Below are positions 9,552-36,816 of a DNA stretch of 44,703 nucleotides, piece by piece. A program made the translations under genes and the position numbers. Source of the DNA: a virus. The stretch lies in IMG/VR virus record IMGVR_UViG_3300038393_001022, one strand, 5' to 3'. Each line of letters opens with the position of its first letter. Position 1 is the stretch's first letter. The notes beneath the pieces are model-generated. The model worked only from the letters and a program-made list of their open reading frames with translations. It made no database searches and was not told the origin of the DNA.

Positions 9552-9776
9552 ATGCAGAGCAAGTACGGCTCCCGCAAGTTCCTGCTGGCTGTGGGCATGG
9601 CAGTCGTGGCGATCGTCAACGCGATCCTTGAGGCCAACGGCCTCCACACGATCCCCGCCGGGACTATGGATCAGGTCTTTAACATCATCCTCGTTTACCT
9701 AGGGGTCGAAGGTGCAACCGACGCCATCAACGCCTTCAAGGGCGGGACCATCCCGCCGAAGGGGGGCGACCACTAG
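9552..9776 (+). CDS. Holin-like protein, 74 aa, two predicted TM helices
   Basis: SD GGGAGG precedes the ATG. Hydrophobic segments are FLLAVGMAVVAIVNAIL and VFNIILVYLGV. Its stop overlaps the endolysin start (TAGTG). Confidence 0.6.
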   Translation: MQSKYGSRKFLLAVGMAVVAIVNAILEANGLHTIPAGTMDQVFNIILVYLGVEGATDAINAFKGGTIPPKGGDH

Positions 9777-10945
9777 TGAAGGGCTATGTACTTGACCCCA
9801 AGGACCTCTACTACACCGTTGAAGGGGCCAAGTCCGGGAGCGCCGATACGGCCTACCTGTGGGCCTGCCAGCCCGCCGGAATGCGAGCCATCAACGGCGT
9901 GGTCTACGGGGCACAGGCGGGCCGTCCGGCCCTCCTAGTGTCTCCCGAGGGTAAGGCGGTCATACGCTGGGACCCGACCGACGCCGAAGTGCGGAACGCC
10001 CGGCTGACCATCGGCGCCGAACTGATCCCCCTCGCCGAGGGGCGTGTGGCGGCGCCGACCCACGGCGGGCCGACTACCGCCCGTATTCTGATCGGCACGA
10101 CCTCTGACGGCAAGCTGATCCACTTCTATCTCGCCAAGGCGACCCTCCGGGGCGCGGGCCTTGTGGCTAAGGCCCTAGGGTGTACGGACGCCATCCAGCT
10201 TCAGGAGGGCGCCCAGACCCAAACCACAGTCGCCCTAGGGGCCGTCCGGGCGACTCCGCTCCCGGCGAAAACGTTCGTCCTCGATCCGGGGCACGGCGGG
10301 GAAGACCCCGGCGCCCACGGCAACGGCCTGACTGAGCGGGACCTCAACCTCTCCGAGGCATATCTGCTGTGGAACGCCCTAGGGGCCTACGACGTCCTCG
10401 TGCTCCCGACCCGCCGGACGAACGAAGAGACCGTTCCCCTAGCCGATCGTTCGGCTCTGGCGAACGCCGCTGGCGCTGACCTCTTCCTGTCCATGCACCA
10501 CAACGCCGCTGGCGGAAGGGGCTATGAGGACTTTGTGTACCTCAAACCTACTACGGGGTGCCTGAAGTACCAATCGGCGATCCAGAAGGCCATAGCGCCC
10601 ATTCTCGCCGAGTTCGGCGTACCCAACCGGGGCGCCAAGAAGGCCGACTACCATGTGGTCCGGGAAACGATATGCCCCTCCGTTCTTGTGGAGTGGCTGT
10701 TCGTCGATCAGGCCGACGATGCCGCCGTCATTAAGAACCCGACGGCGACCGCCCGGTATGTAAGCGCCCTCCTCACCGCCACGGTCGATACCCTAGGACT
10801 CGAGAAGCGGAAGCCTGTGCTGACGGAGCCGCCGCCTTCGAAGCTGTACCGAGTGCAGGTGGGCGCCTTCGCTGACAAGGCTAACGCCGATGGGCTCGTT
10901 GAGCGGCTTAAGGCCGCCGGGTTCGACGCCTACGTGATCGGGTAA
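9776..10945 (+). CDS. Endolysin: N-acetylmuramoyl-L-alanine amidase (Amidase_3) with a C-terminal SPOR domain and an extra N-terminal domain (possibly phosphodiester-glycosidase/DUF2233-like)
   Basis: Amidase_3 signature LDPGHGGEDPGA...E...FLSMHHNA. SPOR-like C-terminus YRVQVGAFADKANADGLVERLKAAGFDAYVIG. GTG start overlaps the upstream stop. Confidence 0.8.
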   Translation: MKGYVLDPKDLYYTVEGAKSGSADTAYLWACQPAGMRAINGVVYGAQAGRPALLVSPEGKAVIRWDPTDAEVRNARLTIGAELIPLAEGRVAAPTHGGPTTARILIGTTSDGKLIHFYLAKATLRGAGLVAKALGCTDAIQLQEGAQTQTTVALGAVRATPLPAKTFVLDPGHGGEDPGAHGNGLTERDLNLSEAYLLWNALGAYDVLVLPTRRTNEETVPLADRSALANAAGADLFLSMHHNAAGGRGYEDFVYLKPTTGCLKYQSAIQKAIAPILAEFGVPNRGAKKADYHVVRETICPSVLVEWLFVDQADDAAVIKNPTATARYVSALLTATVDTLGLEKRKPVLTEPPPSKLYRVQVGAFADKANADGLVERLKAAGFDAYVIG

Positions 10946-16090: not shown

Positions 16091-18631
16091 TTAGGGGTGC
16101 CATTCTACGGCCTCGCCCCATGACGGGCCGACTTCGATCTCTGCCGTCAGGGGGACGGAGAGGTTGACGTTGAACTTTTTGGGTAGGATAACACTAGGGA
16201 CAGCCCACTCGATCGAGTTTTTTACGAGTGTGGCTACCACATCCACAGCGTCTTCGTCTACCTCCAGCGCGATAGCATCGTGGATTAGGCCGATCAGATC
16301 GAACTTCGGCCTAGCGCGTTCCTGATGGTAACGATCAACCTCCCCCGCCGCCAGAACGATAATGTCGTTGGCGAACGACTGGACCTCGAAGTTGGTCCCC
16401 TCTCGGATAGCCTCCTCCCGAATGGCCTCGTCCGGCGACCACACGTTAGGGAGGCGGCGGTAGCGCCCTGTAGCTGACCGGATGTACCCTAGGGTGCTGA
16501 TCGTGTTCCGGCAACGTTGGTGCCACGGGGCGATGCCGCTATACAGCTTGAACCAGCCAGCCCGGTTGGCCTTAGCCTCCTCGTCGGTCAACTTAACACC
16601 ATACTGGAGGTAAGAGAATCGCTTGTACCCACGCCACTGTTGCCCGTAGAGCAGGCCGAAGTTCGACGCCTTGCCACCCTGCCGTTGCTCCTTAGTGATC
16701 GAGCCCTTCGGCGTCCCGGTGATACCCCACACAGTATGCTTGTGAAGGTCTTCGTTACGCCGGATCAGGTCGATCATCGTCATCTCTTGGGCACAGTGGG
16801 CGCCGATACAAAGTTCCATCTGCTTGCCGTCGGCCTCTAAGAACACCCGGCCCGGCGGGGCCCCGAAGATCGAGCGGAGGAGTGCATCCCTAGGGATTTG
16901 CTGGAAGTTGGGCTCCTCGGACGACAGGCGCCCGGTCTTCACGCTCCCTAGGTTGTAGAGCGGGAAGATGCGGGGGACGCCGAACGCCGCCTTAGAGTCC
17001 TGCACGAAACCCTTCCACGCCGTCACGAACTTCAGACGGTCCCTAGCAAGGTTGTACTCTCGTAGGATAGCCGCCAGTTCAGCGGCCTCTTTGACGTTCG
17101 ACTCAGCGGCGATCGTAATGAGCGTCTCCTTGTCGGTGCTGGCGGCGTCGGCCTCGGTCATCTTGATTGGGTCAAGGCCGAACCCCTTCGAGCCGAAGAA
17201 GACCTCTGCCTTCTGCTGAGAACTGTTCCAGTTGACCCCCTCGATCGGCGATAGCGTCTCGAGTTTCCCTAGGGAGTCTTTGATCCGGGCCTCAAGCTGG
17301 ACCCCGGCCTCGTGAAGCTTGTCCTCGTGAACCCACACGCCCTTCTGCTCGATGCGCTCCAGCATCCGGGAGGCTGGCATGATGATGTGGGCCATAACCT
17401 TCGTGAGCCCGGCGTCCTTGAGAATCTCTTCCCTAGTGCGCTCGTACTCCTTCATGTTGTAGTAGATGTCGAGGGCGAGGTAGTAGGCGAGGTCCATAAT
17501 CGGATAGTCCTCGTCATACCGGACGTTCTTGCCGTAGTCTTGAGCGCCATAATGGGCCTTGGCGTGATGCTTCAGGCCGTTGCGGCGGTTCTCGTCAAGG
17601 AGGCAGTTGGCGAGGTAGGGGTCGAAGGTCTGGTACGGCTCAACTCCGGCACGACCCCTAAGCCAACGGTTGTCGTACTTGCCGTTGTAGGGCGCCTTCT
17701 TAAGCTTAGGGTCCTTGAGGATGCGACGGACGAGCGCCGTAACTAGCATAGACCACAGGGAGTTCGTCCCCGCCGGACCCTGCTTGTGCTCCCACGGCAC
17801 GACGAAGATGTGTTTGCCGTCAAAGCCAAAACCGATCATGGTCAGCTTGCCTTGGTGTGGGCGGGCAGGCTTGTCGGCGTCGAAGAATTCGAGTTGCTCC
17901 TTGGTGCGCTCGTCGGAGTTCTCGATGTCGTAGACCATGTAGGTCTCGCACGTCTCATAGGCCTCTTCGAGAATGCTGAGATCATCTGCATCCTCGACGT
18001 AGGTCCACTTTAGGTCACTAGGGGGCTTGTGCTTGCCTTTGATGGCCCCGGCGAAGTACGCCATGTCTTCCGTGAACGCCGCCTCTTCCCCCGGTTTACG
18101 CAGTACGTAGGAAGGGCTGTAGATCGGAAACACCTGAATCGACTCCTGAAGCGAAGCATCCCCTAGCTTCAACTTCAGGGGGTGGAACTCCCCCCGCTTC
18201 TTGGTGATGCCGCCACCGCCACAGAGGGCTTTGAGGGCGGCGTCCCCTAGGGCGAGGATGTACTTGGGCCGGACCCGCTCGATCTCGCCCGCCAGATGGG
18301 TCTTGGCACAGGTCGAAATCTGCTTAGCTGTGGTCTTGCCCTCGTAGCCGGGGTAGCACTTGACGGCCTTGGTCCAGTAGTCAACTTTAACCCCAGCATC
18401 CCTAAGTTTAATCAGCAGAAACTTAACAGCGGGGCTACTCGTTAGAAACGTGGCGTTTGCTTCGTCTTCTCCGTAGGTAGTGACGTCACCTACGACCATA
18501 ATCTCGCCGGACGTAAGCCCGCCACCCATAATCCCCGGATGCTTGCACTTCGCATGAAGTTCACAGGCCGTACACGACACGATCTCACCCCCTGCGTTTG
18601 TCAGTCTACCAGTCCTTGTCAGGCTTGTCAA
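16091..18631 (-). CDS. Family-A DNA polymerase with 3'-5' exonuclease and an N-terminal family-4 UDG-like domain
   Basis: Exo I MVYDIENSD. Motif A LEADGKQMEL. Motif B RQGGKASNFGLLYG. Motif C LIHDAIALEV. The N-terminus has CTACELHAKC...VVGDVTTYGEDE...IYSPSYVLRK. An alternative start is the GTG at 18580, after GGGGGTGAG. Confidence 0.85.
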   Translation of the reverse strand: MTSLTRTGRLTNAGGEIVSCTACELHAKCKHPGIMGGGLTSGEIMVVGDVTTYGEDEANATFLTSSPAVKFLLIKLRDAGVKVDYWTKAVKCYPGYEGKTTAKQISTCAKTHLAGEIERVRPKYILALGDAALKALCGGGGITKKRGEFHPLKLKLGDASLQESIQVFPIYSPSYVLRKPGEEAAFTEDMAYFAGAIKGKHKPPSDLKWTYVEDADDLSILEEAYETCETYMVYDIENSDERTKEQLEFFDADKPARPHQGKLTMIGFGFDGKHIFVVPWEHKQGPAGTNSLWSMLVTALVRRILKDPKLKKAPYNGKYDNRWLRGRAGVEPYQTFDPYLANCLLDENRRNGLKHHAKAHYGAQDYGKNVRYDEDYPIMDLAYYLALDIYYNMKEYERTREEILKDAGLTKVMAHIIMPASRMLERIEQKGVWVHEDKLHEAGVQLEARIKDSLGKLETLSPIEGVNWNSSQQKAEVFFGSKGFGLDPIKMTEADAASTDKETLITIAAESNVKEAAELAAILREYNLARDRLKFVTAWKGFVQDSKAAFGVPRIFPLYNLGSVKTGRLSSEEPNFQQIPRDALLRSIFGAPPGRVFLEADGKQMELCIGAHCAQEMTMIDLIRRNEDLHKHTVWGITGTPKGSITKEQRQGGKASNFGLLYGQQWRGYKRFSYLQYGVKLTDEEAKANRAGWFKLYSGIAPWHQRCRNTISTLGYIRSATGRYRRLPNVWSPDEAIREEAIREGTNFEVQSFANDIIVLAAGEVDRYHQERARPKFDLIGLIHDAIALEVDEDAVDVVATLVKNSIEWAVPSVILPKKFNVNLSVPLTAEIEVGPSWGEAVEWHP

Positions 18632-18634
18632 GCA

Positions 18635-20035
18635 CTACAAGGGCTTGAGAATCTCCCGGTACTTGTCGGCCACCTTGGAACTGATCTCCTGATCGTTCCG
18701 CAGGGTCTCGTAGATGTGCTCGTCTACGGACCCCTTGACCGTCAGGTAGTAGTACGTCACCCCGGCGGCCTTCTGGTTGCGGCCCATGATCCGGTCCTTG
18801 ATCTGGTTGAAGTCGTCTAGGGAGAAGTCCACCGAGTAGAAGACCATCACTCGAGCGGCTGAGAGGTCGATCCCTGTGGAAATGGCCTTTTCCTGACCGA
18901 TTAGGACGGGCAGGCGCCCAGCTTTGAAGTCTCCGATCAGGAGTTCCCGGCCTCCAGCCGACACCGAGCCGTCGATATACGACGCCAAGCAGGTCTTAGC
19001 CAGAGCCTGCTGGATCGCGTAAATCTCCGGGGTAAACCGACAGACCACAATCACTTGCTCGTCGGCTTCAAGATGAGTATTCACGATGTCCTCTAGGGCT
19101 ACCAGCTTCGCCCGGCTCACCTGCTCTATGGTCCTGTCCTCCCTAGTGACGAAACCCCCGGCGATCTGCTGGAGCCGCATCAACCGGGTCAGGACATGGG
19201 GCGCCATCACTAGGGAGCCGTCGTCGAGTTCAGCCACAGACTCCTGTGCTAGGGTGTTGTAGACCTTCCGGGCCTTGGGCTCCAGTTCGACCGGAATCGT
19301 GATGTGCTCGACCTCAGGCTCCCGGATGTCAGTGTCCTTACGCAGGACCCGCATGGACCACGGCGCCAACGCCTCACTGATCTCGTCTTCGTTCTTGTAC
19401 CCTAGGAGAGCCTTAGAGTACGGGTTTCTGATCTCATACCGCTCCCTGAACGGCGTGACTTTAGTCCAGATGTCGGCGATGAACCGCCCTAGGCCGAAGG
19501 CGTCTGTGGGCCGCTTAGGGATCGGCGTCCCGGTCAGGGCGAGTCGATCTGTGGCCTTCTTCGCCAGCCGCCACATCGCTTTCGACCGCTGGGAGGTAGC
19601 GCCCCTAAGCAGATGTGCCTCGTCAGCTATGATGATCTCTGGTTTAAACAGTTTGGCTAGGTTCTTTTCGTCATTCACAATTGCCTGATACCCACCTACA
19701 TAGACCACTAAGGTCGTACCGGGGTGTTCGGTAAAGTTGCTATAGACAGTCCCGGCCTCTCCTACATAGTGGATCGTTATGTTGATCCACTTAGGGAGGT
19801 ACTCCTTGATCTGCTCCACCCACACCGGGCGCACGGTCTTCGGGCACCCGATCAGCACCCGCCGGACCCCACGGAACAGGTAGCTGAACCCGATGTAGTC
19901 GATCGCCACCCGCGTCTTTCCTACCCTCTGCTGGAAGAAAACCCCGAAGCGACGCTTCTTCAGCGCCCGCTTCAGGGCTTCCAGTTGGTAGGGAGCAGGT
20001 AGCGGCTCGACGAAGTGGTACTTCTTCGTCGCCAC
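18635..20035 (-). CDS. SNF2-family (DEAD/DEAH-like) helicase, 466 aa
   Basis: Motif I QQRVGKTRVA. Motif II IIIADEAHLL. C-terminal motifs STGIDL...QIKDRIMGRNQ. Confidence 0.8.
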   Translation of the reverse strand: MATKKYHFVEPLPAPYQLEALKRALKKRRFGVFFQQRVGKTRVAIDYIGFSYLFRGVRRVLIGCPKTVRPVWVEQIKEYLPKWINITIHYVGEAGTVYSNFTEHPGTTLVVYVGGYQAIVNDEKNLAKLFKPEIIIADEAHLLRGATSQRSKAMWRLAKKATDRLALTGTPIPKRPTDAFGLGRFIADIWTKVTPFRERYEIRNPYSKALLGYKNEDEISEALAPWSMRVLRKDTDIREPEVEHITIPVELEPKARKVYNTLAQESVAELDDGSLVMAPHVLTRLMRLQQIAGGFVTREDRTIEQVSRAKLVALEDIVNTHLEADEQVIVVCRFTPEIYAIQQALAKTCLASYIDGSVSAGGRELLIGDFKAGRLPVLIGQEKAISTGIDLSAARVMVFYSVDFSLDDFNQIKDRIMGRNQKAAGVTYYYLTVKGSVDEHIYETLRNDQEISSKVADKYREILKPL

Positions 20036-20041
20036 TAGTGA

Positions 20042-20293
20042 TTACCCCCTAAGATGACCTCGGGCATGGCTGACGAACTCAACCGAGCCGTCGCCGGGAG
20101 CCACTTCGACCGGGCTGGTCTTCTGGGTAAAGTCCATCGCGTCGAGAACCTGACCCGCCACCCATTTCTGCCGGGCCATCATGTTACCGATGCCGACCCG
20201 ACCGCAGTTCTGGGCGGCGGCCCACGTATCCTCGATCAGCGCCTTCAGGTACTCAGCCGGAACCGTAACCATCGGCTCAATCTTCCCGTTCAT
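20042..20293 (-). CDS. Hypothetical protein, 83 aa
   Basis: ORF packed between the primase-helicase and the SNF2 helicase. Its start overlaps the upstream stop. Confidence 0.5.
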   Translation of the reverse strand: MNGKIEPMVTVPAEYLKALIEDTWAAAQNCGRVGIGNMMARQKWVAGQVLDAMDFTQKTSPVEVAPGDGSVEFVSHARGHLRG

Positions 20294-22263
20294 CAGGCAC
20301 CCTCCTCTTTCTTCTCAGCCAACTCATAGACGCGCTGACCGTTGGACTTACGCCATCGGATCACGCCTTCGAGTTCGTACTCCTTAAGCCACACCGTCAA
20401 TTTCGCTCGGTCTACCCGGACAGCGGCCCGGAGATCATCCTTGGTCATCGGCTTGGACGCCAAGACCGCGAGAACTTCCTCCTTCTTCGCCGCCAACCCT
20501 AGGGAGCCCGACCCACCATCATCGAGTACCTCAGGGTCGTACTCGATGTCGATGTTATACCGGAGGCTGAGGTCTCGCTGTGGTGCCATCGACCGGAACT
20601 CGCGCCCTAAGGTAACTTCGCCGGGGGCGCCTGCCAGCGAGAGGTACAGGCCTGTCTCGATCCAGCCGTGGAAGGCCGATGAACCACGGATGTTCTGCCC
20701 GCCACGGGTCGAGTTCTGGGCCTTCTTGTAGTGGTGAACGAGGACAGTAAAGACCCCGTAGACGTTGCGAAGCTTAGTTAGCCACCGCAGGACCCGGTTG
20801 ACCTCTGGGGCTGAGTTCTCGTCGGTGTCGCCCATCATCATGTACAGAGGGTCCAGTACCATAAGGAGCGGGCGGTACTTAGCGACAGCGGCCTCGATGG
20901 TGTTCTGACAATCCATGTCCGTCAGATCCATGCCAGCGTTGTTGCTGAAGTAGATTTCGATGTCATCCGGTAGGTACTCGTCGGCGGCCTCAAGGAGGTG
21001 CTTTTGCATCGCCACCTTAAAGAGGCGGTCCTGCACGGTGTTCTCACCGTTCTCCTCTTGGATCATCAGGACTGGACCCCGAACCCGCACCGGGAACACC
21101 CCTAGGAAGGGCGTACCTGATGCCACAGAGACAGCGAGGTCCATTGTCGTCACCGACTTGTAGGTCTTGGGCTCACCAGCCACCATGCCGTAGCCTTCCT
21201 GCCAGATGCCCTCGACGAGCCACTGAGGCGGTTTAATCGCCTTCGAGAGGAACTTGTCGTAGGGTGTCAGCCAGTCAGCCGCAGGCTTATCAGCTTCGGT
21301 CACTAGGGTAACGCCGTCGCCGCTCCCAGCCTTGTGGATGGGGAGCGTCGGCTTCGTGGCCTTGACCTTCTCCTCGGCCTTGAGCATCTCCCGGATGATC
21401 TGGGACTCACCGCCATCGTGCCGATCGCGGAACTTGTTCCACGCCGACAGCGCCACGAGCCGAGCGGCAAGGTGGATCGGGCACCCGTCCTCCACTAGGG
21501 TAGTCTCGAGTTCCCACAGGCGCTCCGAGCGAGTTCCCTTCTCGACCGCCTCAGGGTGGACGAGGAGCAACTCCTTTGCTCTGGGACTAACCTTCTGCGT
21601 CAGGAGGATACGGCGAATCTCGTCGAGCCGCTCGTCAGCGTCAGCGGTCAGCGGGACCTCTACCTTAGCCTCACTCACTAGGGGGTGAAGGGTAAGGACC
21701 GCCTTGAGATCAGCCGCCGGGCCATCCTTCCACAGGAGACGCCCCTCTTGGGCCGGGCTGTACTTGCGGTTCAGCAAGCCGGGCACCCGGAGAACCTGCG
21801 TCACATCCCAGCCGGACCTGTCGGCCCCTAGGGAGTAGGCGAGGGCTTTATTGGCGGCCTCAGCCTGCTCTGTGGGTGATTCCTCGTCGAGACACCATAA
21901 GGCCTGTCGGCTGTTGTCGGACGAAGCCCATGCGATGGTTGGTCTGGGACTAATGGTATCTGGCGCCGGAACGTCGTCGGCCCACAACCACCCTAGGGTT
22001 TTGGGCGCCGTGGTCTTGTGCCTACGGGGCCCGTCGAAGACGATCGGGCAGAAGTAGACTTCGTACCCTGCGTCGGCTGATTTGGTGACTCGGGCCCAGA
22101 TGGCTTCTTTCTCCTCAGGCCACTTAAAGGCCCGACCATCCTCCCAATCACCTTCGGGCTTTCCCTTAGCGTTCTTGCCCGTAATCAGCCACCTAGGGAC
22201 GAAGACATACCCCTTCCGGTCGCCCCATACCATCTGCAAGACGGTCAGGTGCGGCTTCGGCAC
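20293..22263 (-). CDS. Bifunctional AEP primase-polymerase / RecA-fold (RepA/DnaB-like) helicase with a C-terminal winged helix, 656 aa
   Basis: AEP motif LRVPGLLNRK. Walker A GEPKTYKS. Walker B LLMVLDPL. GTG start after GGAGGGA. Confidence 0.75.
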   Translation of the reverse strand: MPKPHLTVLQMVWGDRKGYVFVPRWLITGKNAKGKPEGDWEDGRAFKWPEEKEAIWARVTKSADAGYEVYFCPIVFDGPRRHKTTAPKTLGWLWADDVPAPDTISPRPTIAWASSDNSRQALWCLDEESPTEQAEAANKALAYSLGADRSGWDVTQVLRVPGLLNRKYSPAQEGRLLWKDGPAADLKAVLTLHPLVSEAKVEVPLTADADERLDEIRRILLTQKVSPRAKELLLVHPEAVEKGTRSERLWELETTLVEDGCPIHLAARLVALSAWNKFRDRHDGGESQIIREMLKAEEKVKATKPTLPIHKAGSGDGVTLVTEADKPAADWLTPYDKFLSKAIKPPQWLVEGIWQEGYGMVAGEPKTYKSVTTMDLAVSVASGTPFLGVFPVRVRGPVLMIQEENGENTVQDRLFKVAMQKHLLEAADEYLPDDIEIYFSNNAGMDLTDMDCQNTIEAAVAKYRPLLMVLDPLYMMMGDTDENSAPEVNRVLRWLTKLRNVYGVFTVLVHHYKKAQNSTRGGQNIRGSSAFHGWIETGLYLSLAGAPGEVTLGREFRSMAPQRDLSLRYNIDIEYDPEVLDDGGSGSLGLAAKKEEVLAVLASKPMTKDDLRAAVRVDRAKLTVWLKEYELEGVIRWRKSNGQRVYELAEKKEEGA

Positions 22264-22277
22264 GGGGTATGTCCCTC

Positions 22278-22463
22278 CTACTCGGGCGTATAGGCGCCCT
22301 TAGACGCGAGGTCGTTCTTAACCAACTCGTTAAAGTAGTCAGCCATCGTCATGCCCTTGGTCTTCAGGTAGTCCCCTAGGGCTTCCTTAACGTTGGGTTC
22401 GAGCCGGACGTTTGTCCCCTCGCGTTCGCTGTAACCGCCCGGATTCTTGATCGGACCTGCCAT
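22278..22463 (-). CDS. Ribbon-helix-helix (CopG/Arc-like) DNA-binding protein, 61 aa
   Basis: AGGAGGAA precedes the ATG. NVRLEPNVKEALGDYLKTKGMTMADYFNELV fits a beta-strand plus two helices. Confidence 0.5.
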   Translation of the reverse strand: MAGPIKNPGGYSEREGTNVRLEPNVKEALGDYLKTKGMTMADYFNELVKNDLASKGAYTPE

Positions 22464-22474
22464 CGTGATTCCTC

Positions 22475-22792
22475 CTAGCCTGTGTCGGTACTTGCCTTGG
22501 TAACGGCCCCTATTAGTGCCTTTCGGAACGACGTAATGCCTGTCCCGTTGACATAAACAATAGTGGACCTGTCACCGTTTAATAGGCGTAGAATACGATT
22601 GTAAGCCTTATGCGACATAACCCCTGTGATAAACACGACGTAATCGCCCGACACAGCGGTTATTCGGGCGGCGTCTTCGGGGAGAAGAAACACGATCTCG
22701 CCCCCTAGGGACTCCACTACGGCTTTGTAGTCTGGGGCTCTCTTGCCAATTCCACTTATCACGACTAGACGCTTGCCACTCAATAAGCCCAT
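22475..22792 (-). CDS. DUF2325-like small protein (~105 aa; track ORF trimmed to the ATG at 22792)
   Basis: AGGGGGTGAG precedes the ATG. The pattern VVFITGVMSHKAYNRILRLL...IVYVNGTGITSFRKAL resembles the DUF2325 core. This rests on recall only. Confidence 0.4.
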   Translation of the reverse strand: MGLLSGKRLVVISGIGKRAPDYKAVVESLGGEIVFLLPEDAARITAVSGDYVVFITGVMSHKAYNRILRLLNGDRSTIVYVNGTGITSFRKALIGAVTKASTDTG

Positions 22793-22897
22793 CCGTCTCA
22801 CCCCCTCTGGCGAACGGTGGATGCTCCCACCGTATCACGGTATGACGCACGTTGTCAACACCATTTCGACGACCGAAACGGAACAAGGGGCAGGGTA

Positions 22898-25249
22898 TTA
22901 CCCCTGCCCCTGCCTAAGAAGCTTGGCGATGAACCGATGGACAGCGGCAGGGACCTGCTCTAGGCCAGTTACCTCACCTATAGCCGCCATCGCCTTTATG
23001 GGAACGTAATCAGCCCCGTAGTACGTGGCGGCCTCCTCATGAACGTGGTCAGCGTTGTTAATCAAAAGGGGCAGGAACGGGCAGACCTTACGGGCCTGCT
23101 TGACCGCCTTAGCGAGGTCCATCAAAACCTCACGGTCAGGCGACGAATAGCTACTCTTTCCACCAACGTTGTCAAGGCCTGTGGAGTAGTTCGACGGCAT
23201 TCCGTCGGAAACCCACACGAGAAGCTTGTGATCGGCCTGCACGCCCTTGATTAACTCTGTGGCAACCCCTAGGGCGTGCCCATCTCGGTTATCCATGTTG
23301 GGCTCGTAGCCGTTGACCTTAAAGATCGGGTCGGCGTTCGACATAATCAACGGCTTAATCAGTAGAGCACCGCTATTCAGCCAAGAGAACAGCCGGACGT
23401 TTACGCCACAGGCCCTGAGGGCTGAGACGAGAACCCATGCCATCCCTCGTACTTGGTCTTTCCGACCCCCGTTCGAACCGGAGGCATCGAGCCAGATGTC
23501 AATGTGCCAGTTCCCTAAGGCCTTTTCCTCCTTGCGGAGCATTACGTCGGGCCGCTGAAGGTGTGTGGCCTGCCACACCTTAGATGCCGCCACCTTGTAG
23601 CCGCTCTTGTGGCGGTACGTGTCGGCCTCCCTTGCCCGGCGGAACTCCTCGGCCAGCTTCGACGTCAACTGTGACCGTAGGGCGGCGAGAATCGGGAACC
23701 TCTTCTCGTTCACCGCACCGGGTAGGGATGTGTTCTTGTCGTAGAACGACATCATCCCTGTGTGCATCCCTACGGATACCACTCGGTCAGCGTCGATCAA
23801 TTCCTTAGGGCGGGTAAACCGTGGTGGCTTATAAGTCGCCTCCCACCCCTTGATGTGCTTCTCCATCGCCTTGTCGAGAACCTCAAGAACCTCAGCCGCC
23901 CGCTCGATCGCCTTTTTAACCGTCGCCCCAAGAAGCTTCGTCATGCTGTGCTCGCCGCTGTCGGCCTCGGAACTCTCGGCAACGGCCCGCTCGATGGCGG
24001 CCTCAGCCTCGCCGTCGCATTCATCGCCGTCGCCACCCGTCCCTAGGGACGGCTCACCGGATTCGTCGCCACTGTCATCAGCGCCGTCATCAGGTCCGTC
24101 AGACGGTTCTCCACCCATATCGTCGCCCTCGTCATCGTCGTCAGCGTCACCCTCAGAAGCATCGTCATCCCCGTCAGCGCCGCCAGAGCGATCATGGTCA
24201 CGACCACCAGAGGCGTCGTCACGATCATCGCCGTCTCCTTCAGAAGCACCTTCGTCGCCGCCTTCTTCGTCGGCGTCATCAGGTTCAACATCGTCAGCAT
24301 GAGCGCCGCCAGCGTCCCTAGTATCACCAAGGTTATCTCCAAGATCGACGTCATTATCATCGTCCTCCCTAGGGGGTTGCTTCGAAGAAGGCTTCGACTC
24401 CGGCTCGTCGGTAATTTCGACGTTGACCGTCTCACCCTCGCCGCTTCCGTCGTCCTCTTGGAGTTCGCCATTCTCTAGCGCCTCTTCGAGTTCCTCCCGA
24501 GTCATCTTCTTGGTCTCGCCCTTGCCGTCGCCGGACCCCGAGCCCTCGGACTTCGGCGCCGGATTGAACCCGAAAGCCTTGCGAAAGGCCCGGTGCCCAA
24601 TCTTGAGGGCCGACACACAGTCCGGCGCGTCCTTGGCCTTGAGGAGGTTAGCGGCAAGGTGTTGAGCCGTAGCCTTCTCGGCGGGGGTGAGGTAGCCCCT
24701 CCACTCGGCCCGGCCCTCCCTAGTGATGTCAACCCCAGCGAGGGCTAGACCAGCCGCCACACGCATAATGTCCATCTGACGGTCTACGCCGCCGGAGTGC
24801 TTGTAGTGATTGGTTACGAGATGCCGAGCCGATCGATTGTTCATCTCCTCATAGCCGGGCCGAACCTTCGCCATAACCGCATCCACACGGAGGTCCTCAG
24901 CGACGTCAAGGCAGGCGTACACGAGGTCCTTGCGCTCCCGCTTGTCCTTGACCAGCTTATCCATGTACTTCCCTAGGGCGTCGGTCTTCGACTTGGCGAA
25001 GATGTGGGCGCCCTCATGGACCGTTGTCACAACGGCGCTGTCGATCGCGTCCTCCTCGCTGAAGCCCGCCGCCATCAGTACACTAGGGTCGCCGACGGTG
25101 ATGTTCTTCACGGCGTCGGTGTGGCCGCCCGCCTTCTTGTCCGTAACCTTGAGCCGGACGTCAACGTTGTCCGAGACCGTCTTCGCCAGCGAGGAGAGCC
25201 GTTCACGTAGAACGGCCCTCTTGGCATAAATCTCTTGGATGTTGGACAT
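22898..25249 (-). CDS. vWA-domain protein with an N-terminal HExxH metallopeptidase-like domain and a ~190-aa poly-acidic linker (CobT / DUF2201-like), 783 aa
   Basis: HEGAH at about 24998-25030. MIDAS DASGS in DIWLDASGSNGG at about 23466-23500. D/E/G/S-rich tract at about 23930-24515. It is directly downstream of the AAA+ gene. Confidence 0.7.
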   Translation of the reverse strand: MSNIQEIYAKRAVLRERLSSLAKTVSDNVDVRLKVTDKKAGGHTDAVKNITVGDPSVLMAAGFSEEDAIDSAVVTTVHEGAHIFAKSKTDALGKYMDKLVKDKRERKDLVYACLDVAEDLRVDAVMAKVRPGYEEMNNRSARHLVTNHYKHSGGVDRQMDIMRVAAGLALAGVDITREGRAEWRGYLTPAEKATAQHLAANLLKAKDAPDCVSALKIGHRAFRKAFGFNPAPKSEGSGSGDGKGETKKMTREELEEALENGELQEDDGSGEGETVNVEITDEPESKPSSKQPPREDDDNDVDLGDNLGDTRDAGGAHADDVEPDDADEEGGDEGASEGDGDDRDDASGGRDHDRSGGADGDDDASEGDADDDDEGDDMGGEPSDGPDDGADDSGDESGEPSLGTGGDGDECDGEAEAAIERAVAESSEADSGEHSMTKLLGATVKKAIERAAEVLEVLDKAMEKHIKGWEATYKPPRFTRPKELIDADRVVSVGMHTGMMSFYDKNTSLPGAVNEKRFPILAALRSQLTSKLAEEFRRAREADTYRHKSGYKVAASKVWQATHLQRPDVMLRKEEKALGNWHIDIWLDASGSNGGRKDQVRGMAWVLVSALRACGVNVRLFSWLNSGALLIKPLIMSNADPIFKVNGYEPNMDNRDGHALGVATELIKGVQADHKLLVWVSDGMPSNYSTGLDNVGGKSSYSSPDREVLMDLAKAVKQARKVCPFLPLLINNADHVHEEAATYYGADYVPIKAMAAIGEVTGLEQVPAAVHRFIAKLLRQGQG

Positions 25250-25254
25250 GTTAG

Positions 25255-27306
25255 CTACGCCTCCGTAAAGAAGTCACTGAAGCCCCAGCCGCTCTGAATC
25301 CGGGTCTTCACGATGTCGCCGACAAGCTTCTGCTCTAACTCCTCGTCGGTACGCCCCACAAAGGAGGTCAGACAGGCCTCCTGCGGCGGAATGCCCTGCC
25401 ATATGAGTTCGACCGCTTGGAGTACGGCACGAACGGAGACCGAACGGGTCGAAATCTCCGACGCGCCTCCTGCGGCGCCCGACTTCTTGAGCAGGTCTTG
25501 GAAGATGCCTGCTAGGAGGTTGGCCTTGTCAGCCTTGAGGCCGTAGCGGTAGAACTTCGTCTTGAGCAGGTTGGCGAAGTCGTTCTGCCCCATTGGCGGT
25601 ACATAGACGGGCACAAAACCGTCAGCGGTCGCCTCGTTTAGTTCACTAGTGCCAGCGTAGCCGGGGTTGAACGTCAGAATCATGCGGAACGCCGGGTGGG
25701 CCGTGACGACACCGTAGCCGGGAATCTCCAACCGACGCCGATCGTCACGTAGGGAGTGGGTGATGATAAGGGCCTCAGGCCGGACGGAGTTCGCCTCGTC
25801 GATCACGCAGAACTTCCCATCACGGGCCGCCGCCGCTACGGTGCCGTAGAGGTACGACACCTCGTCACGCTTCCCTAGAGCGGCGAGGACACCGCCGATC
25901 GCCTGCTCGGTCATGCCCTCGGCCTTGAGTTGCTCGTAGACCTCGACCATATCCTTCGTGTCCCGAACGTGGCTCTTGAAGACCTCGTGACCGATGATCG
26001 AATCACCGTCAAGGTGGGCATGGCCCTGAATCTCAGCCAGCGGCCTTGCCAGCAGAAAGGCACAGGTCTCAGCGAGGGTGTTCTTGCCGGAGCCCTTCGG
26101 GCCCTTGAGGATCAAGTGCTGGCCCCCTAGGAGCGCGGCAAGGGACAGCTTGAGTTCCTTGGAGCCGAAGAAGAACGCCCGAAGCTTCGGATGATCCGGG
26201 TCGTTGCTCGGCATCCCTAGGTTGGTGCGGAACTCATTGATCTGCTTGATCTGCCGAGGGGTAACACCCTGCGACTTCACGTAGTCGAGGACGGACATCT
26301 TGCTCATGGGGTCAGCTTCCTCCTTAGGGGCGGGTGTGGTTGACGCTGAGGCTCGGTTAATGAGTGTAACCACATGATCCTCACTGGGCGTCCAGTGCCC
26401 TACCGTAACGTGTTTTCCGTCTTTGTCGTAGGCCACGCTGACATCAGCCTTCTTAGCGCCCAAAACATGATGGACGTCGGTTACGGTGTAAACGTTCTTG
26501 GCATCCTCTGAGATGCGTAGGTTCTGAAACACATCACCTACGCGGAGGTCGTAGCAGTAAACCTCCCTAGGGAGAATCTCCCCGTGGACCGGACCTTCTG
26601 CACCCTTAGGCAGGTGCTTCTCCGTCGTCCCGGTCCCGGTCGTGACCTCTTCCGTACCGGGTACGGTCAGCGGCTTCAGCGGAGCCGGAGTGGGCTTCTT
26701 AGGGCCGGAGAACGTCACACTAGGCTCCCGCATAGCCCGGTCGAAGTCCGTATCGGGTCCGTGGTCGATCGCAGGGGCCGTCATCGCCGGAGTGCCGTCG
26801 TCGTAGGTGGCGACGACCTCCTCAGGGGCAAAAAGATCGACATGCCGATCAGCATCAGCGCCCCAATCGTAGGTATTACCGACGATACCCGCGTTGCTGT
26901 GACCCCGCTTGACAAGCTTGACCACAAACTCGCAGTCACCCTTATCAGTAACGACCTCGTAGAAGTGACCCGTCGTAGGCCAGCGGAAGATGTCGCCGAC
27001 CTTCAACAGCTTAACCGGACCTCCTCCAGCGGGGGTGTAACCCTCAAGGCTGGACTCCTCAACCTTGTGCTTAGGCGGCTCTGCTGTGGTCGTGGCCGCA
27101 TCGTACGTGCCCTCTACTATGAGGACCTCGGTCCCTAGGGGCTTAGGGTACTCCCGGCCTGAGGAGCCCTCGACGCGAAGGATGGCGACCTTCTCACCGG
27201 ACTCCTCGTCCAACTCAATCCGGATGAAGGTGTACTTCTTCCCACCCTCCTTCAGTTGGACGACGGAGCCGATGGAGACACGGTACAGTTCACGACGACG
27301 GATCAT
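25255..27306 (-). CDS. AAA+ ATPase of the MoxR/CobS (AAA_5) type with a ~360-aa N-terminal extension, 683 aa
   Basis: Walker A LKGPKGSGKNT (about 26076-26110). Walker B FCVIDEANSV. The N-terminal part holds three small beta-rich segments (IGSVVQLKEGGKKY, KVGDIFRWPTTGHFYEV, RVGDVFQNLRI). Confidence 0.7.
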   Translation of the reverse strand: MIRRRELYRVSIGSVVQLKEGGKKYTFIRIELDEESGEKVAILRVEGSSGREYPKPLGTEVLIVEGTYDAATTTAEPPKHKVEESSLEGYTPAGGGPVKLLKVGDIFRWPTTGHFYEVVTDKGDCEFVVKLVKRGHSNAGIVGNTYDWGADADRHVDLFAPEEVVATYDDGTPAMTAPAIDHGPDTDFDRAMREPSVTFSGPKKPTPAPLKPLTVPGTEEVTTGTGTTEKHLPKGAEGPVHGEILPREVYCYDLRVGDVFQNLRISEDAKNVYTVTDVHHVLGAKKADVSVAYDKDGKHVTVGHWTPSEDHVVTLINRASASTTPAPKEEADPMSKMSVLDYVKSQGVTPRQIKQINEFRTNLGMPSNDPDHPKLRAFFFGSKELKLSLAALLGGQHLILKGPKGSGKNTLAETCAFLLARPLAEIQGHAHLDGDSIIGHEVFKSHVRDTKDMVEVYEQLKAEGMTEQAIGGVLAALGKRDEVSYLYGTVAAAARDGKFCVIDEANSVRPEALIITHSLRDDRRRLEIPGYGVVTAHPAFRMILTFNPGYAGTSELNEATADGFVPVYVPPMGQNDFANLLKTKFYRYGLKADKANLLAGIFQDLLKKSGAAGGASEISTRSVSVRAVLQAVELIWQGIPPQEACLTSFVGRTDEELEQKLVGDIVKTRIQSGWGFSDFFTEA

Positions 27307-27440
27307 GCGACTTCGACCTCCTTGTAGGTACTTAGGAACTGGCGCAACTCAGCCACGGTGCCCTTGAAGCGGAGCACGCCAAGCCGGATGCCGGACTCGG
27401 TACTTAGGTGCAGGCGAACCAGCGTTTCCAGATCGTACAC
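27303..27440 (-). CDS. Candidate 45-aa protein translationally coupled to the AAA+ gene (not in the ORF track)
   Basis: GAGGAGGG lies 8 nt before the GTG at 27440. The product is VYDLETLVRLHLSTESGIRLGVLRFKGTVAELRQFLSTYKEVEVA. Its stop overlaps the AAA+ start (ATGA). Confidence 0.45.
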   Translation of the reverse strand: MYDLETLVRLHLSTESGIRLGVLRFKGTVAELRQFLSTYKEVEVA

Positions 27441-27518: not shown

Positions 27519-27866
27519 TTACTCGTTGATGCCGAAGGCGGTCTTGATCGTAGAGACGAGGCCAAGCCCCTTCTCGGTCATTGCAACGTTGACCACACGA
27601 CGGTCCTCGGCATCCTCGCTACGGGTGATGTAGCCGTCCCGGACGAGCCGATCGAGGATGCCCGTCATGTTGCCACGAGAGCACCCAAGGGCGTCGGCGA
27701 TGTGGCTGATCTTGGTGTAGGCGCCGCCATTCTCGGCGATCACCAAGAAGGCAAGAGCCTGCGGATAGGTCATCTGGACGCCGTGGTCGTTGACGAGGGT
27801 CTGCTCAAACTTGAACTTACGGGCGGCCTCTTCGATGTCATGCCGGATGATGTCCTTCAGGTTCAC
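27519..27866 (-). CDS. MarR-family winged-helix transcriptional regulator (~115 aa; track ORF trimmed)
   Basis: ISHIADALGCSRGNMTGILDRLVRDGYITRSEDAEDRRVV is a typical MarR wHTH. GGGAGGA lies 7 nt before the GTG at 27866. The longer form would overlap the upstream gene by 56 nt. Confidence 0.7.
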   Translation of the reverse strand: MNLKDIIRHDIEEAARKFKFEQTLVNDHGVQMTYPQALAFLVIAENGGAYTKISHIADALGCSRGNMTGILDRLVRDGYITRSEDAEDRRVVNVAMTEKGLGLVSTIKTAFGINE

Positions 27867-27924
27867 GGCGGTATCCTCCCTAGGGGCGTTATTTAGGGTG
27901 CCGGAACCGGGGCCGGAGCCTATG

Positions 27925-28242
27925 TTAAAGTCCTGCAAGCCGCTCGGCGAGGGGCGCCCACAGAACCTTGATCGAAACACCTTGGGGGCCGTGGTTGGTA
28001 TGCACCGCCAACCCGGCGACGTTGAGAAGCTTTAGGGCGAAGTGGGCGTTGCAGGTGTGGCGCCCGTGGTTGATCTCCTTCAGGGCCAGTTCGTAGGACC
28101 GGGCTCCGGGGTTCTTCAGCATGAAGTTCCCTAGGTTCTTCATCGAGAGCCGCTCGCCCTTGTTCATCGTCTCGACGAGACGATCGAAAGCTTCCCTGTG
28201 GATCTGGTCGTAGGTGACGGGGTTATGAATGGGGTGAATCAT
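27925..28242 (-). CDS. Hypothetical early protein, 105 aa
   Basis: GGGAGGAA lies 5 nt before the ATG. Confidence 0.55.
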   Translation of the reverse strand: MIHPIHNPVTYDQIHREAFDRLVETMNKGERLSMKNLGNFMLKNPGARSYELALKEINHGRHTCNAHFALKLLNVAGLAVHTNHGPQGVSIKVLWAPLAERLAGL

Positions 28243-32129: not shown

Positions 32130-32948
32130 TTACTTGCGGAGTAGCTTCGCCCCTAGGGACTTGGCATCCTCAGGGGACAGGTTGGCGAGGAGAGCCTGTA
32201 GTTGCTCAAGGGGAGGGGCGCCCTCTGTGGCGGGCTTGCTCTTGCCCTTGCCCTTCGGGGCGGTCTCCTGCTTCGGCGCCTCTTCCTTCGGGGCGATGGT
32301 GCCGCCTACGCCAGAGGTCTCCGGGCGCTTCGCACCGCACTCCATGCAGAACTTACCGCCGTTGTCCTTGTGGCCGCAGGTGCATGTCCACTTGCCGTCC
32401 GTGGAGGTCTCCTTCGGCGCCTCCTCCGGTAGCTTCGTCCCGCACTCTTGGCAGAACTTCTGCCCGGCCCTTGCGGTGTGTCCACAAGCCGTGCACTTGC
32501 GCTTGCCCTCCTCGACCTCCTTGCGAATCGCCTCCTGAAGGGTTGCCGCCTTCTTAGTGAGGTCGGAGGTAACGAGAGCCTGCATCATGGCACCCACGCC
32601 GTCCAGCGTGTGCAGAGGGATGTCAACGACGTTCCCGTTCTGCCCGACGCTAGGGATGTAGCCATCGGCGTCGTGTTCGTTCGCCTCCTTGCCCTTAAAC
32701 CACCGCTGAATGCGCGCCTTGAGCACCACGTCAGCCGCCTTGAGCGCCTTGTGGTCGCCGCCTTGAATGAGGGCAACTACCTGTTCCCTCGTGACGTTCT
32801 CAGGGGTGATGGCGAGCAGGTAGGTCCGAAGCACGTTCGTGCTGTCCAGTACGACGCAAGGGACCTTGAAACCCTCCGGCTTTGTGCCGACAAAGAACGT
32901 GTGGTACTGGAGCGCCTTCTTCTGAGCCTGAGCGTTCTGGATGGTCAT
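32130..32948 (-). CDS. Double zinc-ribbon protein with a Lys/Ala/Pro-rich tail, 272 aa
   Basis: AAGGAG lies 10 nt before the ATG. CTACGH...FCQECG and CTCGH...FCMECG are two CxxC...CxxC ribbons. It is a monocistronic unit with its own terminator. Confidence 0.65.
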   Translation of the reverse strand: MTIQNAQAQKKALQYHTFFVGTKPEGFKVPCVVLDSTNVLRTYLLAITPENVTREQVVALIQGGDHKALKAADVVLKARIQRWFKGKEANEHDADGYIPSVGQNGNVVDIPLHTLDGVGAMMQALVTSDLTKKAATLQEAIRKEVEEGKRKCTACGHTARAGQKFCQECGTKLPEEAPKETSTDGKWTCTCGHKDNGGKFCMECGAKRPETSGVGGTIAPKEEAPKQETAPKGKGKSKPATEGAPPLEQLQALLANLSPEDAKSLGAKLLRK

Positions 32949-35095: not shown

Positions 35096-35312
35096 TCTGG
35101 CAGGCATGATCGAACAGCGCACTTACAAGCGGCTCGATGTCGGCGACTTCGCCCTGCTCGAGACCCACACCGAGGCTGAGGCGCGGGAGGCGCTCTTGGG
35201 CTACTTCGCCTGCCCGGCGGGTAAGGCCGACCTCGACGAGTCCCCCCATCGCGGGCGCCCCGTCCCTGCTGTGGTTGAGGACCTCCTTAAGGGGCTGAAG
35301 TTCAGTGGATAG
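35082..35312 (+). CDS. Hypothetical protein, 76 aa (track ORF trimmed)
   Basis: GAGGAGGA lies 8-9 nt before the ATG at 35082. Confidence 0.45.
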   Translation: MASLDLAGMIEQRTYKRLDVGDFALLETHTEAEAREALLGYFACPAGKADLDESPHRGRPVPAVVEDLLKGLKFSG

Positions 35313-36816
35313 CGACCTGCTCAAACTGCTCAAGAAGTCCCGGAAAGACCCCGTTTTCTTCGTTGAGAACATCCTAGGGATCAATTCCCTATGGGAGAAG
35401 CAACGGGAAATCTTGGAGTCCATCCGGGACAACCGTTTCACCACAATCCGCTCCTGCCACGGCTCGGGCAAGAGTTTCACGACCTCGCTCGCTGTGGCTT
35501 GGTACTTGTCCACCCACCCCTACTCCATCGTCATCACCACGGCGCCAACCGGGCGTCAGGTGCGTGAGGTCATGTGGCAGGAGATCGCTAAGAACGTGGG
35601 CCGGGCGAAGTTCCCCCTAGGGGGTCGGATGCTGACGACTTCGTGGCAGATCGCTGGCGGCTGGTACGCCCTAGGGTTCTCGTCTGACGAGGCCGATCGG
35701 TTTCAGGGCTTTCACGCCAAGGAGATGCTCGTTGTCGTTGACGAGGCTTGCGGCGTGCCCTTGCCCATCTTCGAAGGTATCGACTCGCTCATTACCGCTG
35801 AATCGAACAAGTTGCTCCTGATCGGGAACCCGACCAACCCTGAGGGGCGCTTCTACGACTCCTTCAAGTCTCCGCTCTACCACAAAATCCACATCAGCGC
35901 CTTCGAGACGCCGAACCTCGTCGCCGGGCGGGTGGTCAACCCCCATCTCGTTACCCCCCGCTGGGTGGAGGACCGCCGGACAGAGTGGGGCGAGGACTCC
36001 CCGGCGTGGATCAGCCGCGTCCTAGGGCAGTTCCCTGAGACCTCCTCGGACACGTTCATCTCGCTCAACCTGATTGACGCCTCGCTCGACAACGACCTGC
36101 ACCCCGGAGTCGCCCCTAGGGACACCCCCGGCCCCTGTGTGGTTGCCTGTGACCCGGCCCGGTTCGGTGATGACGAGTCGATTCTCGTTACCCGCCGGGG
36201 CGACAAGGTGACGCGCATGGAGTGGTACTACGGCGTGGACGGCGTACAACTCGCCCGGCACATGCTGAAGATGATGACCGAAGAGGTCGCTGACATCGGC
36301 GTAGTTGACACGAATGGTAACGGCTCGGGCGTCTTCGACGTTCTCTTTAGGGAGTATGGTGTGCAGAACGTCATGGGCTTTATGAGCCAAGAGCAGGCCA
36401 ACGACCGGGCGCACTACGTCAACAAGCGCGTCGAGGCATGGGCCGCCCTCAAGGAGCGCATGAGGAAGAACAAGCTGGACCTCACCATCTTTGACACCCC
36501 TAAGGACCGGGAGGCCATACGTGGTCAGTTGTCCGGCCCGAAGTACAAGTACGACGCCTCCGGGCGTTACCAACTTGAGCGCAAGGAGGACATGAAGAAG
36601 CGGGGCCTGAAGTCGCCTGACCGTGCCGACGCTATCGCGCTGGCATTCTACTATGAGGGGCAGGCGGGTGTGGGTCAGGCCACATGGACCGACCGTAAGG
36701 AGGAGCCGAAGCCCGGCACCCTCGCATGGGTTCAGCGTGAGATCGAGCGTGAGGCCGCTGAGCGAGACCTTGAGCGCGAAGAGTACGAGTGGTTGAAGAT
36801 GGAGGTGGGTGAGTGA
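35305..36816 (+). CDS. terL: Terminase large subunit, 503 aa
   Basis: Walker A-like SCHGSGKSFT. Walker B LVVVDEACG. The C-terminal half is nuclease-like, and the gene lies upstream of the portal. Confidence 0.85.
   Translation: MDSDLLKLLKKSRKDPVFFVENILGINSLWEKQREILESIRDNRFTTIRSCHGSGKSFTTSLAVAWYLSTHPYSIVITTAPTGRQVREVMWQEIAKNVGRAKFPLGGRMLTTSWQIAGGWYALGFSSDEADRFQGFHAKEMLVVVDEACGVPLPIFEGIDSLITAESNKLLLIGNPTNPEGRFYDSFKSPLYHKIHISAFETPNLVAGRVVNPHLVTPRWVEDRRTEWGEDSPAWISRVLGQFPETSSDTFISLNLIDASLDNDLHPGVAPRDTPGPCVVACDPARFGDDESILVTRRGDKVTRMEWYYGVDGVQLARHMLKMMTEEVADIGVVDTNGNGSGVFDVLFREYGVQNVMGFMSQEQANDRAHYVNKRVEAWAALKERMRKNKLDLTIFDTPKDREAIRGQLSGPKYKYDASGRYQLERKEDMKKRGLKSPDRADAIALAFYYEGQAGVGQATWTDRKEEPKPGTLAWVQREIEREAAERDLEREEYEWLKMEVGE

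Follow-up and report, generated by a model that had tools for sequence, protein, structure and literature searches.

We analysed a viral genome window of 44,703 nucleotides (nt), the IMG/VR record IMGVR_UViG_3300038393_001022, around five open reading frames (ORFs) on the minus strand between positions 22278 and 27440, which an initial annotation had described as one cluster built on an AAA+ ATPase and a protein joining an HExxH motif to a von Willebrand factor A (vWA) domain. The functional unit of this stretch is, on a judgement that we place a little above even, a two-gene motor-adaptor machine that remodels a client protein, with metal-dependent processing of that client, in an early or replication context. 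The two genes are paired across related loci, they are homologous to known motor-adaptor pairs, their motifs are conserved and their synteny with phage replication genes is maintained; the sequences mark the 783-amino-acid (aa) protein as the predicted obligate adaptor, of the CobT/NorD type, of a 683-aa ATPase of the CbbQ/NorQ type.

The motor gene (25255..27306, minus strand) encodes a MoxR-class AAA+ protein, as shown by a Pfam AAA_5 match over aa 397-562 (E = 7e-18; 65.4 bits against a cut-off of 22), and its Walker A motif GPKGSGKN (26080..26103, minus strand) and Walker B motif VIDEA (25792..25806, minus strand) were verified at their exact coordinates. Comparison of the motor family profile with the PDB placed it nearest to CbbQ (6e-25) and NorQ (2e-23) and much farther from CobS (5.5e-8), and the ATPase core was likewise far nearer to the midasin AAA domains than to CobS. 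The initial description of a CobS/CobT-like pair was thus right for the vWA neighbour, which is CobT-like, whereas the motor scores far better with CbbQ and NorQ. The CbbQ_C lid stayed below its Pfam cut-off (14.9 bits against 20.6; E = 0.031), and the profile alignments to CbbQ and NorQ span the lid. Walker A, Walker B and sensor-1 columns, the last represented by the Asn of TFNPG, are invariant in the family alignment, with Walker A ending throughout the motor family in GKN, that is, with N rather than S/T.

Where the arginine finger is expected, family alignments show ADGF (25615..25626, minus strand), a form confined to the window and its closest relatives (loci L096-L098), whereas all other family members have SRF or DRF. 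The window clade reads N(E/Q)ATADGF against NEAL.SRF elsewhere in the family, and GT(S/T)EL replaces GTREL. The arginine of SRF/DRF aligns with midasin RNRF and is, by homology, the predicted arginine finger, an assignment that the SRFD motif of MCM proteins and general knowledge of the MoxR and MCM ATPases support. In CobS the arginine finger is R210, which stands in a DRW-type motif (preprint 10.64898/2026.07.21.739949). Because ADGF takes the place of SRF/DRF, the window clade is without a canonical arginine finger. The same closest relatives, and no others, share an insertion of about 34-36 aa (VRDTKDM...GKRDE; 25861..25968, minus strand) with a conserved VRD...R.DEV, and its conserved arginine may substitute for the lost finger in a rewired ATPase site.

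The motor also carries an N-terminal extension of ~360 aa (26227..27306, minus strand), delimited by sequence and alignment. The three small beta-rich segments that had been noted initially are visible in the sequence at aa ~5-66, ~97-160 and ~253-322, with Pro/Thr-rich linkers between them, and have recognisable copies in the closest relatives. Three such modules in the window compare with 2, 2, 0 and 0 in the four closest relatives, while the extension is of another kind in phage-class motors farther away (~170 aa) and is absent from cellular homologues. The modules probably help to select the client.

The adaptor gene (22898..25249, minus strand) was classified by Pfam, by its family profile and by AlphaFold2. 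The Pfam CobT_C match is partial, covering aa 652-695 only (27.5 bits against a cut-off of 21), and the family profile matched CobT (9uka_G; 1.3e-16) and NorD (9qhd_G; 6e-9) in the PDB, with family iaEDyRVD aligned to avEqaRVE of CobT in the hidden Markov model (HMM) alignment. The Pfam CobT N-domain model (PF06213) did not match the adaptor, and hhalign of the family profile with single NorD or CobT sequences aligned the vWA part alone.

AlphaFold2 predicted a zincin-like, CobT_N/M48C-like N-domain (aa 1-228; 24566..25249, minus strand), which when modelled alone reached a pLDDT of 94.5 and a pTM of 0.90, and in which a helix is followed by a three-stranded sheet, the HExxH helix, the ED.RVD helix and further helices. 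CobT_N, which binds the CobS lid subdomain, has a crystal structure that was described as consisting of a single helix, a sheet of three strands and eight helices and likened to an M48C peptidase domain (preprint 10.64898/2026.07.21.739949), and the predicted topology of the phage N-domain matches that description. In the BFVD, Foldseek with the same domain recovered the N-terminal parts of many phage CobT/VWFA proteins of 600-800 aa (E = 3e-5 to 1e-3; TMq 0.5-0.7), from haloarchaeal tailed viruses, Gordonia phages and uncultured Caudovirales.

The HEGAH motif (H78, E79 and H82; 25004..25018, minus strand) lies in the modelled helix 65-84 and EDLRVD (E118, D119, R121 and D123; 24881..24898, minus strand), the equivalent of EqaRVE in CobT, in helix 107-129. 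Among 35 representatives clustered at 50% identity, H78, H82, E118, D119, R121, D123 and G132 were invariant and E79 was kept in at least 90%; E118, D119 and D123 are candidates for the third metal ligand on alignment and model. The N-domain is followed by an acidic linker of 203 aa (aa 229-431; 38% D/E; 23957..24565, minus strand), disordered in the AlphaFold2 model (pLDDT below 50) and with counterparts in most members of the HExxH subfamily, and then by a C-terminal region, a helical extension with the vWA domain (22901..23956, minus strand), which is modelled confidently. Its MIDAS (the adhesion site that depends on metal ions) consists of D588-A-S-G-S (588-592; 23474-23488, minus strand), NRDG (654-657) and SDG (681-683), all invariant in the family, and Foldseek placed the vWA model closest to the NorD vWA domain in cryo-EM complexes of NorQ and NorD (E = 1e-9), followed by the human midasin MIDAS domain. 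The HEGAH, acidic linker and DASGS of the initial annotation were therefore all confirmed, and its domain calls hold, with AAA_5, CobT_C/vWA and DUF2325 each passing the Pfam threshold.

A HMMER search with the last 329 aa of the vWA protein, run in full against 1.84 billion cluster representatives, showed the family to be rare, with only 216 proteins at E <= 1e-3. An HExxH group (~33 representatives; median ~680 aa) has ED.R(V/I)D and RPGY ~36 residues after HExxH and usually an acidic linker; an HExxH-less group (~116 representatives; ~575 aa) has a homologous N-domain with degenerate motif positions (profile-profile hhalign probability 98.4%, E = 8e-15). Other searches returned little: single-protein scans of IMG/VR gave no match, a search with an alignment of four sequences yielded no match in the metagenome, viral or genome collections, and word-indexed homologue searches with the full AAA+ protein, the full vWA protein or a 31-sequence alignment returned almost only the query, the acidic linker being suspected of having filled the candidate list in the case of the vWA protein.

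Related loci from IMG/VR (6) and metagenomes (80) were surveyed together with the contigs of the four closest vWA proteins, and the AAA+ gene was directly upstream of the vWA gene wherever upstream DNA was present (~90 related loci). In the phage class, HExxH-containing vWA proteins of 648-704 aa accompany motors with an N-extension (415-526 aa), and the genes follow the order AAA, 0-2 small ORFs, vWA, 0-2 unrelated small ORFs, ribbon-helix-helix (RHH), primase, SNF2, PolA, PD-(D/E)XK and AAA_24, an order kept in 11 independent viral or metagenomic loci, 9 of which were examined in detail. The HExxH site and the motor N-extension thus go together with phage replication genes. The other class combines HExxH-less vWA proteins of ~580-620 aa with motors of ~305 aa on contigs of up to 3 Mb. 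Downstream of these HExxH-less pairs, the cobalt-transporter genes cbiM, cbiN and cbiQ were seen at ~10 of 46 loci (including L023, L025, L030, L046, L052 and L077), and genes for radical SAM/SPASM, DUF3786 and CbiA-like NTPase proteins recur nearby; such neighbours hint that the cellular pairs could be an uncharacterised cobalt or nickel insertion system of anaerobes.

Two solved systems provide the template for how the phage pair might work. In the NorQD scheme a finger of the adaptor occupies the ring pore, the adaptor C-terminus rests on the post-sensor-1 loop and its N-domain on the lid, and ATP twists and stretches the linker (PMC13036017); in the CobSTN scheme a shaft occupies the pore and CobN is held between CobT_N and CobT_C (preprint 10.64898/2026.07.21.739949). 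We infer the architecture of the phage complex by analogy with these, and infer also its peptidase activity, its timing and its client. The ATPase would form a hexameric ring, the pore of which would be entered by the finger or shaft ahead of the vWA domain of one adaptor, while the adaptor N-domain would dock on a lid subdomain of the ATPase. ATP turnover would then twist the vWA domain relative to the N-domain and stretch the long acidic linker, so that a third protein, the client, gripped by the MIDAS face and the N-domain, would be remodelled. This remodelling would be linked to a metal-dependent step in which the client is cleaved or processed, or at the least to the binding of metal; the combination is favoured because the phage subfamily keeps the zincin-type site and because the motor has extra N-terminal modules. 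Since the pair sits in the replication arm, on the strand of early and replication genes, it would most likely act in the early or middle stage of infection, its target being a protein of the host or the phage rather than tetrapyrroles.

The nearest relatives by this scheme are NorQ/NorD, the iron-inserting chaperone of cNOR, and CbbQ/CbbO, the Rubisco activase, which are likewise pairs of a MoxR AAA+ protein and a vWA adaptor. CbbQ and NorQ are closest to the phage motor in sequence and the NorD vWA domain is closest to the modelled phage domain, and these systems share an adaptor with an N-domain, a long linker and a vWA domain with a MIDAS, as well as adjacent genes with the motor first. 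Unlike them, the phage adaptor has an intact HExxH...E site and a strongly acidic linker, the phage motor has a 360-aa N-extension, a GKN Walker A motif, a clade insertion and no canonical arginine finger, and the phage encodes neither a NOR nor a Rubisco client.

Several observations weigh against a remodelling and processing machine of this kind. Foldseek of the N-domain against the PDB found no significant zincin, the best match being the minigluzincin selecase (E = 0.97, probability 0.66), with jannalysin and ERAP1 ranked below it. The catalytic Glu is replaced, with both histidines kept, in the close relative P0005 (L097, 7180-9330; HKGAH) and again at L031 (9950-12028; HQGAH), and because of these replacements the zincin site may bind metal without cleaving; such members caution against assuming peptidase activity. 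With ADGF in place of the canonical finger, the motor of the window clade may be a poor ATPase or may use a changed mechanism of ATP hydrolysis, and genomic position is weak evidence for timing.

A more radical version of the same architecture, which we advance tentatively, is that the pair is a split, FtsH-like ATP-dependent metalloprotease wired into the replication module, with an ancestral zincin site, still active, that would cleave a specific replication-associated client of host or phage origin. Such an enzyme would have a relocated or absent arginine finger, swappable N-terminal recognition modules and a CobT-like adaptor twisted by the ring. The resemblance to the FtsH-type AAA+ zinc metalloproteases is a functional analogy, in that both bring together an AAA+ ring and an HExxH zincin site; unlike FtsH, the phage system consists of two polypeptides, belongs to MoxR clade 7 of the AAA+ proteins, bears the zincin on the vWA adaptor and lacks a membrane anchor, and its proteolysis is putative. 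If this were so, the cellular CobT, NorD and CbbO would be derived forms in which the scaffold was retained but the peptidase was lost.

The sequence likeness to CobT raises another explanation, proposed for tailed viruses (PMC8651126), that the pair is a viral CobS/CobT module which, acting as an auxiliary metabolic gene, hijacks host CobN so that more cobalamin is made. CobT is indeed the best solved relative of the adaptor by profile (1.3e-16), with the N-domain motif as well as the vWA domain included, and the modelled N-domain has the topology of the M48C-like CobT_N; the PHROG label of the motor family is "porphyrin biosynthesis", and the cellular relatives adjoin cbiM/cbiN/cbiQ at about 10 of the 46 loci mentioned above. 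We nevertheless consider this explanation unlikely. The motor is only distantly CobS-like (5.5e-8) and much nearer to CbbQ and NorQ, has extra N-terminal modules and is without the arginine finger; the adaptor is not matched by the Pfam CobT N-domain model; and the 44.7-kb genome encodes neither CobN nor a B12-dependent enzyme, in keeping with the initial view that a cobaltochelatase is improbable without CobN. The synteny is fixed with replication genes, not metabolic ones, and HExxH is intact in the phage subfamily and lost in the cellular, cobalt-linked one. We take the HExxH motif to be degenerate in CobT as well; in one CobT-type sequence (P0154) the corresponding DHEISK appears degenerate.

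Less probable again is a counter-defence or host-takeover device, in which the variable modules would recognise a host defence or housekeeping protein and the pair would inactivate it, a role also raised in the initial annotation. The pair does belong to the arm of early and replication genes, close relatives carry anywhere from 0 to 3 N-terminal modules, and amino-acid differences between strains concentrate in the N-extension and near the MIDAS loops. In a comparison of the window with its sister contigs, 77 differences were counted over 22 kb, of which 48 lie within the AAA+ and vWA genes and another 20 in a patch of the SNF2 gene (19000-19500), with flanking genes 99.9-100% identical; eight of the nine motor amino-acid differences are in the N-extension, and the adaptor changes at the linker start and around the MIDAS loops. 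This polymorphism, however, represents two haplotypes only, PADLOC found no match of the pair to known defence or anti-defence families, and the pair is a stable syntenic core of its lineage rather than a sporadic accessory, so that direct support for a counter-defence role did not emerge.

A virion-assembly chaperone and processing system, the role proposed for pairs of MoxR and N-terminal-metallopeptidase-vWA proteins in jumbo phages (Iyer et al. 2021, PMC7824862), is more doubtful than any of the foregoing. MoxR and vWA proteins have been shown to act in tail development of the Acidianus two-tailed virus, the same domain architecture has been described with the assembly role (PMC7824862), and many phage CobT/VWFA proteins share the fold of the N-domain. 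Here, by contrast, the pair lies between the genes for a MarR-like regulator and the primase, on the strand of replication and early genes, far from the terminase, portal, capsid and tail genes, which have the opposite orientation, and its synteny with replication genes is kept across distant relatives. Both the cobalamin and the assembly explanations fit the data less well than a motor-adaptor machine acting on a client in the replication context.

That all five genes, DUF2325 and RHH included, make up one functional module, as the initial annotation had proposed, is very improbable and contradicted by the neighbourhood survey. In its favour, the genes are co-oriented and adjacent, with short spacers inside two sub-blocks; against it, the DUF2325 gene is found at 0 of ~95 related loci outside the strain variants of the window, the RHH gene travels with the primase (9 of 9 loci), a terminator-like hairpin and a gap of ~100 nt separate the vWA and DUF2325 genes, and the 45-aa ORF is not conserved. 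Three further candidates were rejected: the vWA-MoxR-VMAP ternary conflict system (Kaur et al. 2020, PMC7159879), as no conserved third gene was seen beside the pair, only replication genes or small ORFs that vary; a family of defence or anti-defence systems already known, for which PADLOC was negative; and a cobaltochelatase encoded wholly by the phage, as the window holds no CobN.

The two-gene architecture is already known in phages, as a MoxR protein with a peptidase-like N-domain fused to a vWA domain in jumbo phages (PMC7824862) and as a widespread viral cobST cluster whose cobT frequently bears a peptidase annotation (Liu et al. 2021, PMC8651126). These reports agree with the initial statement that CobS/CobT-like pairs occur in phages with their function unresolved; they also show, together with the wide recurrence of the N-domain in the BFVD, that the combination is less novel than had been supposed, since pairs with HExxH plus vWA had been described. 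The window lineage differs from the described cobST pairs in that its pair lies in the replication module of a ~45-kb genome, its motor has extra beta-modules and the window clade has lost the arginine finger. What is new is a replication-module lineage of the pair, a motor with a modular N-extension and a clade that lacks the canonical arginine finger, together with a zincin site that is intact in phages and degenerate in the cobalt-linked cellular relatives.

CobS/CobT-like pairs are among the most widespread phage genes of unassigned function and are routinely scored as cobalamin "auxiliary metabolic genes". The CbbQ/NorQ-type motor, the intact zincin site and the locking of the pair into a replication module cast doubt on that label for at least one lineage. 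The analysis also supplies residues for testing the motor-adaptor machine, namely H78, E79, H82, D588, G563 and R449. Should the peptidase prove active, the family would represent a two-component AAA+ protease of a new type, and the N-domain of CobT and NorD would then read as a dead peptidase.

The layout of the locus was largely as first annotated: the five co-oriented minus-strand ORFs are present at their annotated positions, and independent gene calls on near-identical sister contigs agree. The description of the genes as tightly coupled holds for the 45-aa ORF and AAA+ gene (4-nt overlap), the AAA+ and vWA genes (5-nt gap), DUF2325 and RHH (11 nt) and RHH and primase (14 nt), and fails between the vWA and DUF2325 genes, where the gap is 96-105 nt. 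At this gap a terminator-like hairpin (22886..22911, minus strand; 10 bp, 8 of them GC; dG = -25.8 kcal/mol, z = -3.8) lies over the vWA stop codon and is followed by a T-rich tail; the gap and the hairpin divide the locus into two blocks, 45aa-AAA-vWA and DUF2325-RHH-primase. The hairpin was also the sole strong one found in 20-30 kb of the replication arm. The first block starts with the 45-aa ORF (27303..27440, minus strand), which has a GTG start and a stop that overlaps the AAA+ start (ATGA), as first reported. A good Shine-Dalgarno sequence, GAGGAGGG, lies 7 nt upstream of its start, and the ORF is called as a gene on related contigs and is identical in strain variants; it matched no family and had no recognisable homologue upstream of the AAA+ gene in relatives, and its coding status is uncertain. 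A MarR-family winged-helix protein (27519-27980, minus strand) is encoded directly upstream of this block and is a possible regulator of it.

The DUF2325 protein (22475..22792, minus strand) has 105 aa from its ATG, or 108 aa from a GTG at 22801, and its assignment to PF10087 stood (37.3 bits against a Pfam cut-off of 33.6). The neighbourhood survey for DUF2325 beside MoxR-vWA pairs, made with an HMM of the window protein and its plasmid homologues, found the combination only in the window and its strain variants; among the genes called beside the four closest vWA proteins no DUF2325 match is on record, and the slot between vWA and RHH is filled by unrelated small ORFs in relatives. The gene is thus a predicted accessory gene in a variable slot, outside the conserved pair. 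Other DUF2325 matches were C-terminal domains of ~425-aa proteins on megaplasmids of the Bacillus cereus group and Paenibacillus, and the window protein weakly matched the C-terminal end of DpdD; a function for the domain is given in none of the few papers in which it is mentioned. In three plasmid DUF2325 loci (L093-L095; labelled Paenibacillus, Bacillus and Klebsiella), dnaX adjoins in two (L094 and L095), and the L094 gene is also near one for a type IA topoisomerase.

The RHH-like protein of 61 aa (22278..22463, minus strand) shows a TNVRL, helix, helix (beta-alpha-alpha) pattern conserved in relatives, and its family matches are all sub-threshold (phrog_5333, E = 3.6e-4; RepA regulator, E = 0.032; DUF6290, E = 0.088; RepB-RCR_reg, E = 0.096), which leaves the initial RHH assignment a tentative one. 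Each of the nine phage-class loci examined, and L099 as well, has an RHH-like ORF with the motif PTN(V/I)RL(E/D)..LK directly upstream of the primase, and the protein is probably a regulator, accessory factor or origin-binding partner of the primase-helicase gene. At the one locus read in Pseudomonas phage PMBT14 (L100), the primase is preceded by a small helix-turn-helix-type protein noted as DUF2089 (4769-4942) rather than an RHH protein.

The phage genome in the window is ~44.7 kb with ~60% GC, and near-identical genomes of 44.6-44.7 kb came up in a single JGI metagenome and in two Logan assemblies. Searches of isolated phages by megablast and tblastn gave no close match; tblastn matches were limited to four unannotated gut contigs, and sequence similarity to isolated phages is very low. 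The nearest isolated phages, Pseudomonas phage PMBT14 and the Serratia phage Serbin-like viruses, share only ~33-35% identity in the primase and showed no AAA-vWA pair by tblastn, and the primase homologue in the nearest isolated phages carries the annotation "DNA recombinase".

Packaging, head, tail and lysis genes occupy the plus strand, with the terminase at 35305-36816, the portal at 37160-39121, the major head protein at 40229-41212 and an endolysin at 9776-10945. The replication arm is on the minus strand and encodes AAA_24, a PD-(D/E)XK nuclease, a family-A DNA polymerase, an SNF2 helicase and a RepB_primase+AAA_25 primase-helicase (20293..22263), the last being the first gene of the syntenic replication block. 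A double zinc-ribbon protein of 272 aa (32130-32948, minus strand) is encoded amid early genes otherwise without annotation, and the family-A DNA polymerase (16091-18631, minus strand) has an N-terminal uracil-DNA-glycosylase (UDG)-like domain within one and the same polypeptide (Pfam UDG, E = 7e-12).

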